In this document: in pieces, positions 2,557 through 52,552 of the stretch
Position numbering within the stretch: the first letter of the stretch is position 1
How the letters are laid out: the number at the start of each line of letters is the position of its first letter
DNA from: Shigella phage CT01
Sequence record: OK018184
Direction: 5' to 3' (one strand)
DNA: 64,000 bases
Translations under genes and position numbers: made by a program
Notes under the pieces: model-generated
The model's input: the letters and a program-made list of their open reading frames with translations, nothing else
Database searches by the model: none
Told to the model about the DNA's origin: nothing

Positions 2557-3135
2557 CTGGCTCATCCATTCTTTACGAAGGTCAGCATTATCTCCCATGA
2601 GCATTTCAAAAAGCTCTTTCCAGTTCTCAGGAAGTTTAACAACATCATATACTGGGTTTTGAATCATCTCACGATATTCAGATTTTTCCAAAGAGCCAAG
2701 TCCTTTAATATAACGGATGCTATGTTTAGGTAGAGCATCTTTGGCACTCTCATATTCAGCGACTGTATAAAACCATTCTTGTTTTTTACCGACCTGAGCG
2801 ATGATTACAGGAGTTTTGACAAAGCGAATTCTTCCTTGTTCAAACAGTTCTGGCCAATTACTAAAAAATCCGAGCAGAGAAGGATAAATGCTTCCTAGAC
2901 CATCATGGTCAGCATCAGTCATAATAGCAATATTATGATAATTCAAGTTTTCAGCTTTTTCACCGAGAACTAATCCAGTGATTGCGCAAATATCAAACAG
3001 TTCTTTGTTTTTAAGCATGTCAGCATATGACATGCCCCAACTGTTGAGAACTTTACCACGTAATGGATAACCACCGTGAAGTTCTTTATCACGAACATCA
3101 ATAAGATATCCGATAGCCGAATCACCCTCAGTCAA
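2554..3135 (-). CDS. 60: DNA topoisomerase II large subunit, C-terminal fragment (T4 gp60-equivalent region), separated from the N-terminal part by the insertion
   Basis: 193-aa ORF with ...IMTDADHDGLGSIYPSLLGFFSNWPELFEQGRIRFVKTPVIIAQVGKK... matching T4 gp60; DHDG codons are contiguous (no 50-nt bypass gap); begins at an internal Met inside repeat copy 1. Confidence 0.75.
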   Translation of the reverse strand: MTEGDSAIGYLIDVRDKELHGGYPLRGKVLNSWGMSYADMLKNKELFDICAITGLVLGEKAENLNYHNIAIMTDADHDGLGSIYPSLLGFFSNWPELFEQGRIRFVKTPVIIAQVGKKQEWFYTVAEYESAKDALPKHSIRYIKGLGSLEKSEYREMIQNPVYDVVKLPENWKELFEMLMGDNADLRKEWMSQ

Positions 3136-3227
3136 GAAAAGAGTAGTATCAGCATCTTTACCACAAAGATTCGCTTTAATATGTTTATGAACCTTAGCTT
3201 TAGAAGCCTTTTTAGCTGCTTTAGTTT
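2856..3227. repeat. direct repeat copy 1 (372 bp, identical to 3901..4272) within the topoisomerase large-subunit coding sequence
   Basis: Exact identity read from sequence; both copies encode TEGDSAIGYLIDVRD...SLLGFFSN. Confidence 0.9.
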
Positions 3228-3281
3228 ATGACTGCATTTTATGCCGCTAATTTATGAGCTGCAGTTGTTCGATGTGGTGGT

Positions 3282-3380
3282 TTCTTCAATCTGAAAGCCG
3301 AGGTCTGAAAGTTTTTGCTGGAAGCGAGCGATGGAATCTTCCAGAGCGGCATCTTTGCCGGGGATAAATGTTTGCGTCAT
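3282..3380 (-). pseudogene. ycaO: 5' fragment (33 codons) of a ycaO-like gene
   Basis: Encodes MTQTFIPGKDAALEDSIARFQQKLSDLGFQIEE, which I recall as the E. coli YcaO N-terminus; truncated at the PstI junction. Confidence 0.7.
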
Positions 3381-3509
3381 GAAAATCACTTTAGTCGTAC
3401 GGAAAGCGCGCAATAATACGGGTTTTATCTCAAAGGCGCTATCACCGCCGCCATGCCGATGAACTGTTGACTATGCTTTTAGCGGATAAACCACGTTAAG
3501 AGCATAAAA

Positions 3510-3786
3510 ATGAAGGCGTTCGATCTCCACCGTATGGCATTTGATAAAGTGCCTTTTGATTTCCTTGGCGAAGTTGCACTACGTAGTCTTTATACCTTTG
3601 TACTGGTTTTTTGTTCCTCAAAATGACCGGAAGACGCGGTGTGCGACAGATGTCGCTGTTTGAAGTGTTAATCATTCTCACGCTGGGTTCAGCGGCGGGA
3701 GATGTGGCGTTTTATGATGATGTGCCGATGGTGCCGGTACTTATCGTCTTTATCACTCTGGCGTTGTTATACCGCCTGGTAATATG
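3510..3786 (+). pseudogene. ycaP: 5' fragment of a ycaP-like (DUF421 membrane protein) gene, divergent from ycaO', with a frameshift
   Basis: Encodes MKAFDLHRMAFDKVPFDFLGEVALRSLYTFVLVF then, after a 1-nt frame change, MSLFEVLIILTLGSAAGDVAFYDDVPMVPVLIVFITLALLYRLV; divergent arrangement with ycaO as in E. coli (recalled). Confidence 0.55.
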
Positions 3787-3871
3787 ATGGCGAGCTGGCC
3801 TGGTCGAAACTCAATAACTCCAACATGACGGAATTTGAGTTCTTTATGGAGCTACTAGTTGAATGGACTAT

Positions 3872-5419
3872 TCAGCAATGCACATTAATTGATTTTAAAA
3901 AATTACTAAAAAATCCGAGCAGAGAAGGATAAATGCTTCCTAGACCATCATGGTCAGCATCAGTCATAATAGCAATATTATGATAATTCAAGTTTTCAGC
4001 TTTTTCACCGAGAACTAATCCAGTGATTGCGCAAATATCAAACAGTTCTTTGTTTTTAAGCATGTCAGCATATGACATGCCCCAACTGTTGAGAACTTTA
4101 CCACGTAATGGATAACCACCGTGAAGTTCTTTATCACGAACATCAATAAGATATCCGATAGCCGAATCACCCTCAGTCAAGAAAAGAGTAGTATCAGCAT
4201 CTTTACCACAAAGATTCGCTTTAATATGTTTATGAACCTTAGCTTTAGAAGCCTTTTTAGCTGCTTTAGTTTCTGCTGCTTTTTCTGCCGCTAATTTACG
4301 AGCCAAAGCAGCTTCAATAATCGGCATTAGAATTGCTTCATTATTTAGAATAGCACGTGAAATCTTTTTAGCATCAAGTTGAATATGACTACGGATTTCA
4401 CCAAATGGAGAAGTCAAACGCTCTTTAGTTTGAGAATCAAATCGCATGTTTTTCATATCACGGACAAACATAACGATAGTCAAACATTCTTTAACGCGTG
4501 CTTTAGTCACATCAATTTTGAACTTACGTTTGATTTGTGGAATAAGGTCTTCACAAATATCATCCATAACACAGTCAATGTGATGGCCACCATTCTTAGT
4601 GTGAATGTTATTCACATAAGTTAATTGACGAAAACCATCCGGTGAACGACCAACCGCAATAGAGCAATTTTCTTGTTCTTGAACGATAGCATGCTCATCA
4701 TATTGGCGTGCATATTTCTTAAAATTACCCTGAACCTTTTTACCATTAAAGGTAAATTGAATATCAGGATAAACTACTGCAAGTGTCTGGAGACGATCTA
4801 GTGTAATGTCAAGATAAACTTGAGATAGCTCATTAGTTTCAAATGACATAAAATCAGGAATGAAAGTAACGCGAGTTCCTTTCCATTTTCCAGGAATATC
4901 TTCCCATGATTTATTTTCCATGCCGTTTGAACAACGAACCACAATATTATTTTGACCGTCGCCAGTTTCACCGACAAACATCACAGAAAAAATGTTAGTT
5001 AAACTAGAACCAACACCGTTCATACCGCCAGTGACGCGTTCTTTATCATCACCAAAGTTACCACCTGCTTTTGGAATAGTCCATGCAGCAACTGGACCAG
5101 GAATTTCTTCACCAGTAGGTGTTTTAACCATCGCCTGTGGAATACCACGACCGTTATCTTCAACTGTTACTTGATTGTTTTTGATAGTAACATTAATTTT
5201 ATTTGCGAATTTAAACTTAGTACGAATACCTTCATCTACCGAGTTATCGATAATTTCATCAATAAGCTTAACAAGACCAGGTACATACTGAACACTTTCC
5301 CATTTACCAAACAGAAAGCGCTCATGCATTTCATTAGCTGAAGAGCCAATGTACATGCCGCTACGCTTTTTGATATGTTCAATATCGCTCAGAATTTTAA
5401 TTTCATTCTTAATCATCAC
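3872..5419 (-). CDS. 39: DNA topoisomerase II large subunit (gp39), N-terminal 515-aa product truncated by the insertion (ends ...SLLGFFSN-FLKSINVHC)
   Basis: GyrB-like ATPase and TOPRIM sequence; the last 8 codons are read from junction sequence. Confidence 0.85.
   Translation of the reverse strand: MMIKNEIKILSDIEHIKKRSGMYIGSSANEMHERFLFGKWESVQYVPGLVKLIDEIIDNSVDEGIRTKFKFANKINVTIKNNQVTVEDNGRGIPQAMVKTPTGEEIPGPVAAWTIPKAGGNFGDDKERVTGGMNGVGSSLTNIFSVMFVGETGDGQNNIVVRCSNGMENKSWEDIPGKWKGTRVTFIPDFMSFETNELSQVYLDITLDRLQTLAVVYPDIQFTFNGKKVQGNFKKYARQYDEHAIVQEQENCSIAVGRSPDGFRQLTYVNNIHTKNGGHHIDCVMDDICEDLIPQIKRKFKIDVTKARVKECLTIVMFVRDMKNMRFDSQTKERLTSPFGEIRSHIQLDAKKISRAILNNEAILMPIIEAALARKLAAEKAAETKAAKKASKAKVHKHIKANLCGKDADTTLFLTEGDSAIGYLIDVRDKELHGGYPLRGKVLNSWGMSYADMLKNKELFDICAITGLVLGEKAENLNYHNIAIMTDADHDGLGSIYPSLLGFFSNFLKSINVHC
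3901..4272. repeat. direct repeat copy 2 (372 bp, identical to 2856..3227)
   Basis: Exact identity read from sequence. Confidence 0.9.
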
Positions 5420-6562: not shown

Positions 6563-6734
6563 TACAATTTCCTCATTAATTGAACATTGGAGCGGTGCGT
6601 TTCAGAAGAGTATCAGCACCTTTAACGAATTATCCATTTTATTCTTCAAGTTGTTTTCTGTATCAGTAGTTGATATTGATATAGTACCATAATCAACTAC
6701 TGATGTATATAGTTTTATGAAAAAATTTTAAACT

Positions 6735-24584: not shown

Positions 24585-24965
24585 TCACTTAGTCAAATTT
24601 TTTACACATGAATTATAAGAATTTACTACATACTCCATCGGAGCATTTTTACCGGTACGCCATTGGTAATTATTAGCCCAATTAGCCCAAAGCTCAGCGC
24701 AGTAGTTTTCAATTTTTTCTTCGCGTGTAATCACATCTGAATTGCGATATGCTTGGGCAGATTCATCTGGACGAATAGCTTCGTCAAAATTCGCCTGCAT
24801 TTGTTCTACTGTCTGTTTTGGAGCCTCTTTATAACACTTAACATTAGGATTATAAAATTTGCTTGAACAGTTTACAATTTTTCCTACATCAGACTGATTT
24901 ACTACCGGTCCTTGAGCTACACAACCAGTAAGACCCAATGCAATAACCAAAATAGCGATTTTCAT
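24585..24965 (-). CDS. predicted lipoprotein
   Basis: ATG at 24963..24965; MKIAILVIALGLTGC signal and lipobox; the track ORF 24585..25124 extends upstream through junction sequence from a GTG. Confidence 0.6.
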   Translation of the reverse strand: MKIAILVIALGLTGCVAQGPVVNQSDVGKIVNCSSKFYNPNVKCYKEAPKQTVEQMQANFDEAIRPDESAQAYRNSDVITREEKIENYCAELWANWANNYQWRTGKNAPMEYVVNSYNSCVKNLTK

Positions 24966-25019
24966 TTCATTCTCCAAATCCGCATCAGTTGATAGTTGTA
25001 TAGTACCATGGAAGAACAG
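24870..25019. repeat. direct repeat copy 1 (150 bp, identical to 25138..25287)
   Basis: Exact identity; covers the lipoprotein gene 5' end, RBS and promoter -10. Confidence 0.9.
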
Positions 25020-25137
25020 ACCTAATTGAACACCCAGCGTTCCATTAGTATTCATATGAAGATTATCATCAATTTTTATTGATACTTTACCATTCATGTG
25101 AATAACAGTATTAGATTCAATCACATCTCTGACTATC
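25020..25137. other. 118-bp segment between the direct repeats, origin unknown
   Basis: Open on the minus strand (VIESNTVIHMNGKVSIKIDDNLHMNTNGTLGVQLG), closed in all plus frames. Confidence 0.6.
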
Positions 25138-25233
25138 GTTTACAATTTTTCCTACATCAGACTGATTTACTACCGGTCCTTGAGCTACACAACCAGTAAG
25201 ACCCAATGCAATAACCAAAATAGCGATTTTCAT
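25117..25233 (-). pseudogene. truncated duplicate of the lipoprotein gene 5' end (38 codons)
   Basis: MKIAILVIALGLTGCVAQGPVVNQSDVGKIVN then DSQRCD-stop from junction sequence. Confidence 0.6.
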
Positions 25234-25287
25234 TTCATTCTCCAAATCCGCATCAGTTGATAGTTGTATAGTACCATGGAAGAACAG
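25138..25287. repeat. direct repeat copy 2 (150 bp)
   Basis: Exact identity to 24870..25019. Confidence 0.9.
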
Positions 25288-42621: not shown

Positions 42622-43091
42622 TTTAAACTCTTTCTAAGCTGCTTCTTAAATGAAGCTATTAATTGTGTTTTAGTGTCAGATTCATTATATTCAAATCCTC
42701 TTTGAAGCATCTCAGCCATCATTTCCTCTTTTCCTAAACGAGAAAATTCCTTTGATTTATCTCCAACGAAGTTAGGGTGAATATTATTTTGGGTGTAATC
42801 GGATTTTAAATAAGTAAGTAAATTTTCTAACCATTCAAGATAATCAACACCTTGTCCCTTTAAGCCAGAACGATTAAATTTATGTTTCATTTGACCTTCT
42901 GCAGCATTGCAGAGATTACATAGCAACCCACGTACCTTTCCTGCTTTTGGTCCATTTAATTCATGGTCATGGTCAAGGTGATTAGCTTGAACATCAGGAT
43001 TTAGTTCTCGTTGGCAAATTAAGCATTTACCGTTTTGTGCATTATAAAATTTTTGTTTTTCTTCTTTGTACAATTTGCCAGTCAATAACAT
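42618..43091 (-). CDS. 49: endonuclease VII gp49 (Holliday junction resolvase)
   Basis: 157 aa; zinc motif CLICQ...HLDHDH...CNLCN; length as T4 EndoVII. Confidence 0.9.
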   Translation of the reverse strand: MLLTGKLYKEEKQKFYNAQNGKCLICQRELNPDVQANHLDHDHELNGPKAGKVRGLLCNLCNAAEGQMKHKFNRSGLKGQGVDYLEWLENLLTYLKSDYTQNNIHPNFVGDKSKEFSRLGKEEMMAEMLQRGFEYNESDTKTQLIASFKKQLRKSLK

Positions 43092-43356
43092 AATAAACCC
43101 TTACCTTAAATAGATAAGGGTATTTATTATTTTCAAGTATTAAAATGCTCGTTCAGAAAAAGAAATTTGAGTTTCAAGAAGTTCTCGTTGGCAAATTAAG
43201 CATTTACCGTTTTGTGCATTATAAAATTTTTGTTTTTCTTCTTTGTACAATTTGCCAGTCAATAACATAATAAACCCTTACCTTAAATAGATAAGGGTAT
43301 TTATTATTTTCAAGTATTAAAATGCTCGTTCAGAAAAAGAAATTTGAGTTTCAAGC
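43003..43356. repeat. tandem duplication, 2 x 177 bp, spanning the gene 49 start and upstream hairpin
   Basis: 43003..43179 and 43180..43356 identical except for the last base. Confidence 0.9.
43140..43268 (-). pseudogene. duplicated gene 49 5' end (30 codons) fused in frame to the last 12 codons of the upstream gene
   Basis: MLLTGKLYKEEKQKFYNAQNGKCLICQREL-LETQISFSERAF. Confidence 0.6.
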
Positions 43357-50841: not shown

Positions 50842-51822
50842 TTATTTCAGAAGAGTAACCTCAGCAATTTCTTCCCAACCGTTTTTGTCGGTCATAATAA
50901 AGTCAGCAAGATAAAGAGCAGTACGCAGTGAAACATTGCGTAAACGATTAACATTAACTTTCATCCATGATAATGCTTTATAAGTTTCTTCATCAGAAAG
51001 ACCGCGCTTTTGCATCATGTCAGTTGAAAGAATAACATCTTCAACCCTGACCATAATTTCTTCATTAGTGTGAACACCCAAATCCAAATAAACCGAGCGG
51101 GACACTAATGCTTGTAAATGTGGAGCAAGTTTAGTACCACGGTCTAATTCGCGGTCAATGTCAACGTTTGTGATAAAAACAATCGTTCCTTTAAATTCAA
51201 ACTCACGCTCAATGCCTTTTTCTTCTAAGTAAGAAGATGCGGTGCTCCAGCAGACTTTACGGGTCTCTCCAGTGTCCAGAGCAGCTTTCAGAAGATTAAG
51301 AATGTCCATATCAGAGAAAACATCCACATCATCAATCAAAAGGACAGAATTCTCTTCACGATTATTCCAAAGCTGTTCATAAAGACCGATACCAGAGATT
51401 TTACCATTAATGCTTTTATATTCAATGTATCCATTATCATTTGCTTTATTCAAAGCTTTATCTAAAGAATACGTTTTACCAATACCCGCCGCACCAGAGA
51501 TAATTAATGAACGAATATTTCCGTTAATAATACCATTCGTCATCATTCCCATAACATTAAATCTTTTATTAATGCGGGTTTTCATATCTTCATATGATTC
51601 TTTAACTTCTTCAACTTTTACACCATCATATGAAATGTCTGATTTGTAAACCCAAACACCGCGACGCTTACCGTCAATTTCAACAAAAACTTTACCATCT
51701 CCTTGTGCATCTACCGGAGCATTATCTGGGAACCATTCACCTAAGAGCTCAAAAGTTCCAGAGATTTCTTTACCGAAGTAGATACCCTTATTGATAGTTA
51801 CAGTTTTCATTTTATTCTCCAA
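50842..51822 (-). CDS. P-loop ATPase
   Basis: 326 aa with Walker A GAAGIGKTYS and Walker B-like LLIDDVD. Confidence 0.6.
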   Translation of the reverse strand: MENKMKTVTINKGIYFGKEISGTFELLGEWFPDNAPVDAQGDGKVFVEIDGKRRGVWVYKSDISYDGVKVEEVKESYEDMKTRINKRFNVMGMMTNGIINGNIRSLIISGAAGIGKTYSLDKALNKANDNGYIEYKSINGKISGIGLYEQLWNNREENSVLLIDDVDVFSDMDILNLLKAALDTGETRKVCWSTASSYLEEKGIEREFEFKGTIVFITNVDIDRELDRGTKLAPHLQALVSRSVYLDLGVHTNEEIMVRVEDVILSTDMMQKRGLSDEETYKALSWMKVNVNRLRNVSLRTALYLADFIMTDKNGWEEIAEVTLLK

Positions 51823-51842
51823 TTTTACATTTGTTTTGATAG

Positions 51843-51879
51843 GGTAATAGTATCACACTACTACCCTGCTGTAAACAAT
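51843..51879 (-). promoter_or_regulatory. T4-type early promoter
   Basis: Reverse strand GTTTAC (gtaaac 51871..51876) ... TACTAT. Confidence 0.5.
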
Positions 51880-52143
51880 TTATTTTAATGTTTGCCAAAT
51901 TTTTACTGCTTCGCGACGAGATACTTCTACGGCGCCAAGTTCTATAGCTTTTTGGCGTCGCCGAGCGTGTAAGTCATAATGTTTAATGCGTTTATCTTGA
52001 AACCAAGAACGTTTCATTCCTATTGCTTCTGCCATTTCATGAAGCTCTTCAATATCTCCATCAGTGAACATATGACAATTTTTAGTTGGATGACCGCGAA
52101 GTTTCCATCCATGATTCATTAAAACATCTACGTAAACTGTCAT
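51880..52143 (-). CDS. hypothetical protein (intact copy)
   Basis: 87-aa ORF MTVYVDVLMNHGWKLRGHPTKN... Confidence 0.55.
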   Translation of the reverse strand: MTVYVDVLMNHGWKLRGHPTKNCHMFTDGDIEELHEMAEAIGMKRSWFQDKRIKHYDLHARRRQKAIELGAVEVSRREAVKIWQTLK

Positions 52144-52306
52144 TGATTCTTCTCCAAATACATTCCTATTGCTTCTGCCATTTCATGAAGCTCTTCAATA
52201 TCTCCATCAGTGAACATATGACAATTTTTAGTTGGATGACCGCGAAGTTTCCATCCATGATTCATTAAAACATCTACGTAAACTGTCATTGATTCTTCTC
52301 CAAATA
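52015..52306. repeat. perfect tandem duplication, 2 x 146 bp, spanning the 5' end of gene 51880..52143
   Basis: 52015..52160 identical to 52161..52306. Confidence 0.9.
52140..52289 (-). pseudogene. duplicated 5' fragment (43 codons) of gene 51880..52143 ending in YLEKNQ-stop
   Basis: Second ATG at 52287..52289 inside repeat copy 2. Confidence 0.55.
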
Positions 52307-52435
52307 AGTTTCGATAATTTTCTGAGCGAGATAAACTGCATTATCTTCAGTTGCATCTTCTAAGAAACTTTCAAAACACTCTGAAATTTCTTCTGTGTCA
52401 ATCAACTTTTTTACTTCAATTGGTGTAATTTTCAT
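52286..52435 (-). CDS. hypothetical small protein
   Basis: Track ORF 52286..52504; start at MKITPIEVKK downstream of the promoter; stop overlaps the next start (ATGA). Confidence 0.45.
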   Translation of the reverse strand: MKITPIEVKKLIDTEEISECFESFLEDATEDNAVYLAQKIIETYLEKNQ

Positions 52436-52467: not shown

Positions 52468-52505
52468 GTTGTATAGTACCATAAAGCTTTATGCTTGTAA
52501 ACAAT
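52468..52505 (-). promoter_or_regulatory. T4-type early promoter with A-rich upstream element
   Basis: Reverse strand aaaaatttttcacaaaattGTTTAC (gtaaac 52497..52502) ... TACTATACA. Confidence 0.55.
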
Positions 52506-52532
52506 TTTGTGAAAAATTTTTGAAATAAAAAA

Positions 52533-52550
52533 GGGAGCCCGAAGGCTCCC
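52533..52550 (-). terminator. UUCG-tetraloop hairpin
   Basis: gggagcccgaaggctccc. Confidence 0.45.
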
Positions 52551-52552
52551 TA

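Follow-up and report, generated by a model that had tools for sequence, protein, structure and literature searches.

A perfect 146-bp tandem duplication in the early-gene region of Shigella phage CT01: a unique structure with three sibling events

The early-gene region of Shigella phage CT01 (sequence record OK018184) contains a perfect 146-bp tandem duplication at the start of a small gene of the DUF4031 family, together with three further perfect local duplications, all within the 64,000-nt stretch of DNA that was analysed here as a whole (the window). To judge from its sequence and its surroundings, the 146-bp duplication is a genuine part of the sequence record that most probably does not belong to the phage lineage, and which we consider, on balance, to be a product of sequencing, assembly or finishing. 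Its uniqueness and the existence of the three sibling events were both absent from the first-pass annotation of this DNA, and they change how the duplication should be read. In what follows, the four duplications are numbered R1 to R4 in order of position, the 146-bp repeat being R4.

The window is the early-gene region of a Tequatrovirus (T4-like phage), running from rIIA to about ipIII/e, with almost all of its genes carried by the minus strand. Its identity to hundreds of T4-like phages of Escherichia, Shigella and Yersinia is 95-100%, in a mosaic pattern. Its first base is an arbitrary slice point inside rIIB, so that no contig rotation can be inferred from the position at which it starts.

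The duplicated unit and the small operon around it

The first-pass annotation had described positions 52015..52160 as equal to 52161..52306, a perfect tandem repeat of 146 bp, and this was borne out both by TRF (period 146, 2.0 copies, 100% matches, 0 indels, score 584) and by direct string comparison. The run over which each base matches the base 146 nt further on (w[p] = w[p+146]) is exactly 146 nt long, with 0 nt of further match at either end, which means that the junction contains no microhomology and no filler. R4 is thus a head-to-tail repeat of one contiguous genome segment, whose junction between 52160 and 52161 reads ...TTCTCCAAATA followed directly by CATTCCTATTG...

Several simple origins could be set aside at this point. 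The parental boundaries (ACGTTT/CATTCC and CAAATA/AGTTTC) share nothing in register, which rules out replication slippage or a microhomology-guided event, and a mobile-element target-site duplication was rejected because there are 0 nt between the copies and no inserted element. A chance origin was likewise rejected for an exact repeat of 146 nt in 64 kb that has only three similar events beside it; exact repeats of at least 30 nt in the 64-kb window comprise the four local duplications and none besides.

The features of the duplicated site are as follows, in the direction of transcription.

52532..52551, minus strand: terminator-like hairpin with T-run (intrinsic type), which ends the upstream nucleotidyltransferase (RlaP-family) gene
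52473..52501, minus strand: T4 early-type promoter-like site (-35 at 52501, -10 ending at 52473), a member of the D2 family of dispersed sequences, which drives the two-gene unit
52286..52435, minus strand: intact 49-aa gene upstream (phrog_6888, of unknown function), whose stop overlaps the fusion-ORF start as ATGA
52161..52306: R4 copy 2; junction between 52160 and 52161, with 0 nt of microhomology and 0 nt of filler
52140..52289, minus strand: extra 49-codon fusion ORF, made up of DUF4031 residues 1-43 and YLEKNQ, with its own GGAG Shine-Dalgarno site
52015..52160: R4 copy 1, promoter-distal, which supplies the start of the intact DUF4031 gene
51880..52143, minus strand: intact DUF4031 gene, 87 aa (phrog_4887), which keeps its native Shine-Dalgarno site and ATGA coupling
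51847..51875, minus strand: next early promoter-like site, which marks the end of the small transcription unit

Read on the minus strand, the unit starts with a TAT (Tyr) codon, six codons ahead of the stop of the 49-aa gene (a gene for which the P922 annotation BD_179 was part of the basis), and ends directly after codon 43 (Met) of the DUF4031 gene, including on its way the GGAG Shine-Dalgarno site and the ATGA stop/start overlap. Coordinates and translation therefore agree with the earlier description of a unit that spans the upstream stop, the ATGA overlap, the start and the first 43 codons of the downstream gene. The gene coordinates and the stop/start overlap given there are correct, both overlaps being ATGA, and the extra truncated ORF of 49 codons does lie at 52140..52289, upstream of the intact gene. 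In this fusion ORF the terminal YLEKNQ is the tail of the upstream 49-aa gene, read in frame, and the stop that follows overlaps the start of the intact DUF4031 gene. The gene at 51880..52143 is a bona fide DUF4031 member, matching PF13223 with 76.8 bits (cut-off 25.6) over profile positions 7-73 of 76, and the fusion ORF matches the same profile with 26.5 bits over positions 1-36.

Taken at face value, and judged from the sequence, the duplication has a mild effect: three native genes would stay intact and translationally coupled, and one ORF of 49 codons would be added. Transcription that starts at the early promoter would pass in turn through the 49-aa gene, the fusion ORF and the intact DUF4031 gene, with coupled translation. 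The fusion peptide would cover only the first 36 of the 76 profile positions, and it is therefore unlikely to fold as a domain. By itself, R4 leaves every intact gene unchanged, and no functional consequence is evident.

The promoter-like site upstream of the operon belongs to a family of dispersed ~60-nt sequences (D2), which share 60-73% identity, lie at window positions 6670, 25257, 39526, 50395, 52462 and 56058, and resemble T4 early promoters (GTTTACA ... TACTATAC, minus strand). One member drives the small DUF4031 operon and another is cut by event R2. The two-gene cassette formed by the 49-aa gene and the DUF4031 gene (51821..52431) varies in its presence among T4-like phages: MW286157 has a different gene, of 66 aa, at this position, and the alignments of several relatives end at 51822, at the edge of the cassette.

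Distribution of the duplication among relatives

A 2.6-kb query around R4 matched 757 phage records. All 40 of the 40 matches listed align in two or three pieces, and among them the record spans 145-147 bp less than the query, save for the two ACG-C40 records, which carry an extra insertion. A 100-nt query centred on the junction matched 136 phage records, as against 757 for the surrounding 2.6 kb, and in every listed record its two halves align with opposite ends of one unit. When megablast was forced to cross the junction, by means of a 28-nt word and a strict 44-nt query, no match was found in 50,697 phage records. A 34-nt junction sequence was, in addition, not found in IMG/VR viral contigs, JGI metagenome contigs or GTDB genome contigs, the 49-aa fusion product has no record among 153 billion gene positions, and the locus of the 146-bp duplication was not found in 5,426 E. 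coli genomes. We could thus reject the idea of R4 as a conserved feature of this phage group, as its junction is present in no phage record or contig collection that was searched.

Phage P922 provides a single-copy counterpart: between 50416 and 53763, over more than 1.4 kb on each side of R4, it matches the window with 100% identity, except that it possesses the unit only once. Since the junction is unique and the flanks of P922 are 100% identical, R4 must be either extremely young or not made by the phage.

Three sibling duplications in the same window

The window holds four perfect local duplications in all, of 372, 150, 176 and 146 bp (R1 to R4), whose copies are separated by fillers of 673, 118, 1 and 0 nt, respectively. 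The first three are these.

2856..4272: R1, a 372-nt repeat (2856..3227 = 3901..4272) around a composite filler of 673 nt
24870..25287: R2, a 150-nt repeat (24870..25019 = 25138..25287) around a filler of 118 nt
43003..43355: R3, 176 + 1 (A) + 176 nt (43003..43178 = 43180..43355)

For each of the four events, both copies map to one locus in relatives. Across 407 kb of homologous regions from 24 relatives, there were no exact local repeats of at least 40 nt, the longest being 38 nt. Each event also has a single-copy relative that is 100% identical on both sides over stretches of hundreds to thousands of bases: SF2-1 for R1, Logan DRR827156 for R2, Logan SRR12802600 for R3 and P922 for R4. No junction-specific ORF product of the sibling events is on record. 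Searches with proteins from the junctions and their neighbours, and with a 47-mer specific to the window, led only to relatives that lack the duplications.

R1 is located within the topoisomerase II large-subunit gene, which is here of the unsplit (T2/SF2-1) type. Its filler consists of 32 nt of mutated local sequence (7 differences, containing CTGCAG), ~23 nt with no assigned source, two pieces of E. coli ycaO/ycaP DNA (504 and 70 nt, with 99.6% and 100% identity) and 45 nt, inverted, that resemble the modA/modB junction of other T4-like phages (best 91%). The ycaO/ycaP segment, which is present in 5,426 of 5,426 E. coli genomes, contains a messy internal deletion of 64 bp. R1 leaves an N-terminal ORF of 514 aa that ends in ...GFFSNFLKSINVHC and a stop, together with a C-terminal fragment that has no obvious start. 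It would represent either a chimeric misassembly or a very recent capture of host DNA. The natural split of T4 genes 39 and 60 was rejected as an explanation of R1, because T4's mobA cassette is not this insertion and sits at another point, and the phage analysed here is of the unsplit type.

Two further observations were made inside the R1 unit. Positions 2889..2954 correspond to the site at which T4's own ~1.1-kb mobA/60.1 cassette, missing in this phage, splits gene 39 from gene 60. From 3019 onwards, identity to SF2-1 falls from 1 mismatch in 3 kb to ~97%, and five mismatches to SF2-1 are identical in the two R1 copies (3019..3148 and 4064..4193); the drop at 3019 is a natural mosaic boundary older than the R1 duplication.

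The R2 unit covers the start of imm.1, a lipoprotein gene, and the -10 part of its early promoter. Its filler comprises 118 nt from the middle of an RB18-type ORF048, a gene that in RB18-type phages lies at exactly the R2 locus, the window otherwise carrying the SF2-type allele without ORF048. No record has a structure of this kind.

R3 reaches from the 3' end of pin across an intergenic hairpin into gene 49 (endonuclease VII), of which it takes in the first 30 codons, and it gives rise to a 42-codon fusion ORF that is brought into frame with the pin tail by the single filler base. The duplication is not seen in the best 15 of 751 matching phage records, in which the span at this locus is 176-178 bp shorter, save in three with extra insertions. 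Nor is it present in any of the 13 of 13 relatives that cover the locus, including Logan SRR12802600, which is 100% identical. The R3 junction was not found in viral contigs.

As the fillers derive from host DNA and from the allele of another phage, both the host's DNA and a second T4-like genotype must have served as templates when these structures were formed.

Origin of the duplication and known systems

Several lines of evidence lead us to favour a technical origin for R4. The R4 junction and its fusion product are unique to this sequence, the copies are identical, and P922 has mutation-free flanks with one copy. There are four perfect duplications in 64 kb, compared with none in 407 kb of relatives, and the R4 joint has 0 nt of microhomology, compared with the 2-10 nt of documented T4 duplications. 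Furthermore, the misplaced fillers consist of host ycaO/ycaP DNA, another strain's ORF048 allele and error-rich patches at the joints, and R1 would disrupt the large subunit of topoisomerase II. A duplication of this type could be formed if overlapping contig ends, or both ends of an over-extended, circularly permuted contig, were joined unmerged; a chimeric template may be an alternative route. On this view, both E. coli host DNA and a second T4-like genotype would have been present in the sample, and the same process would have made R1 to R3 as well, in which identical stretches of 150-372 nt flank 1, 118 or 673 nt of sequence that is out of place. Contamination of phage preparations by host DNA and by mixtures of phages is recognised, as is the problem of duplicated contig regions in assemblies (PMC8785237), and false recent duplications are known from polymorphic samples (PMC2864568).

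A technical origin nevertheless has to contend with a number of observations. De Bruijn graph assemblers normally merge repeats and do not generate them, and no standard k-mer overlap has a length of 146 nt. Although the loci are polymorphic, the unit boundaries differ from the structural-polymorphism breakpoints of relatives. The nearest relative is also unchanged across every junction, and mismatches begin hundreds of bases away or within the units; a join of contigs from different strains is therefore not supported. Finally, three of the four events (R4 included) leave every gene intact, and the R4 fusion is in frame and keeps the native stop/start coupling, as survival of a viable phage would select. 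Such gene-sparing placement is, however, too weak to serve as proof of selection for viability, given that a random 146-nt unit would spare genes by chance with P = 0.34 (0.34-0.40 per event) and that R1 lies inside a gene.

If the technical origin is correct, there are at least four structural errors in 64 kb of this sequence, one of which would wrongly suggest the capture of a host gene and a split topoisomerase gene, and three of which add spurious small fusion ORFs that would contaminate protein databases.

The main rival, which we regard as possible if less probable, is that R4 is a real and very recent tandem duplication, near-neutral and unstable, whose join required no homology. It could have come from aberrant double-strand-break repair or from a template switch in recombination-dependent replication, possibly in a mixed infection during enrichment. 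Consistent with this, three of the four duplications lie across a gene start and leave no gene damaged; the R3 and R4 fusion ORFs end in frame where the upstream gene does; the source of the R2 filler is the allelic locus in another type of T4-like phage, which is what recombination during co-infection predicts; and junction k-mers are rarely invented by assemblers. The four events together would add 1,636 bp in the window, ~1% of a ~167-kb genome, an argument that draws on established knowledge of T4 headful packaging. T4 headful packaging is also described in PMC9391042, and T4 readily makes tandem duplications and amplifications by recombination (PMC9391042). What tells against a real duplication is the zero microhomology, where known T4 events have 2-10 nt, and the extraordinary rate that would be implied by four independent illegitimate events with identical copies and mutation-free flanks, none being seen in 407 kb of relatives. 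In addition, R1 would break the topoisomerase large subunit with host DNA, and no junction is common to any independent assembly or record. The T4 recombination rate is high, and two direct repeats of 146 bp should revert to one copy at an appreciable frequency; a real but unselected duplication should thus be transient. Were R4 real, it would be a rare instance of a T4-like phage caught just after a homology-independent duplication, and were all of R1 to R4 real, they would hint at a route to the creation of small ORFs and the acquisition of host DNA that is distinct from the T4 microhomology route.

A broader proposal, which we hold to be doubtful, is that all of R1 to R4 were made in vivo, in a mixed infection, by a break-repair or template-switch pathway that needs no homology. 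Such a pathway would duplicate 146-372 nt at the site and fill the joint with 0-673 nt, for which the host chromosome or a co-infecting phage would serve as template. In that case the window would show T4-like phages in the act of capturing host and foreign-phage DNA and of gaining new small ORFs at gene starts.

It is far less likely that a real duplication was kept by selection, either for an N-terminal DUF4031 fragment or for altered translation of the small operon (through dosage, a decoy peptide or counter-defence). The in-frame fusion has its own ribosome-binding site, so that the peptide could be made, the cassette lies in the hyperplastic early region where several relatives lack or replace it, and selected tandem amplifications are documented in T4 (PMC9391042). 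Against this, the duplication takes in half of the 76-position domain and gains no whole gene or promoter, it consists of exactly two copies instead of an amplified array, and it occurs in no other phage; the sibling events, moreover, hit unrelated genes, which points to a common generating process rather than to locus-specific selection.

That the duplications entered the record once assembly was complete, whether through manual editing, through the joining of overlapping pieces or through deliberate or synthetic manipulation, we judge to be equally improbable: the R4 join is clean and cut-and-paste-like, without homology, and none of the R1 to R4 structures was found elsewhere, but the junctions (3901, 25138, 43180 and 52161) are irregularly spaced, which rules out a regular tiling of stitched pieces, and the fillers of R1 and R2 fit a biological context (host DNA, an allelic ORF048, noisy patches) that simple editing would not yield. 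A common breakpoint motif (AGTT, CATTC), as a site-specific enzyme might leave, was not significant, with P = 0.03 on one strand post hoc and 0.21 on both strands.

Three known systems offer a comparison. Replicative template switching of the FoSTeS/MMBIR type leaves scars in which a duplication is accompanied by a templated insertion, typically with microhomology at the switches. To our knowledge, scars of this type have not been described in T4-like phages, and a search of the literature for them in these phages found none. R1 to R4, taken together, resemble them in combining local duplication with short fillers from other templates, one inverted piece and base errors clustered at the junctions; R4 by itself differs, having neither filler nor microhomology.

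Microhomology-mediated tandem amplification is known in T4 from dmd-tifA (Srikant et al. 2022), with earlier cases in rII and genes 16-18 cited there (PMC9391042). R4 is like these events in being head-to-tail, in lying in the early region of a T4-type genome, in being confined to one lineage and in having copies that are initially identical. The T4 amplifications, however, have microhomology of 2-10 nt (typically 6-10) at their boundaries, and they involve whole genes with their promoter, reaching about tenfold copies under selection with deletions that compensate (PMC9391042). R4 has 0 nt of boundary homology on both sides, and where the T4 events take in a complete gene, often in more than two copies, it duplicates 43 of 87 codons plus 6 codons of the upstream gene, without a promoter and in two copies.

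False recent duplication during assembly, through unmerged overlaps, over-extended contigs of circularly permuted phage genomes or polymorphic samples, is the third system (PMC2864568; PMC8785237). R4 differs from it in having a unit length that is no standard k-mer overlap, and an over-extended, re-opened contig would account for one duplication per contig, not four. The likeness lies in copies that are 100% identical, in their presence in one sequence only and in their position in a polymorphic cassette region, and the siblings carry host DNA and another strain's allele. As expected of an assembly misjoin, R4 has identical copies and a single-copy relative with identical flanks, it is absent from independent sequences, and it is accompanied by the further misjoin signatures of R1 to R3 in the same window, with none in 407 kb of relatives.
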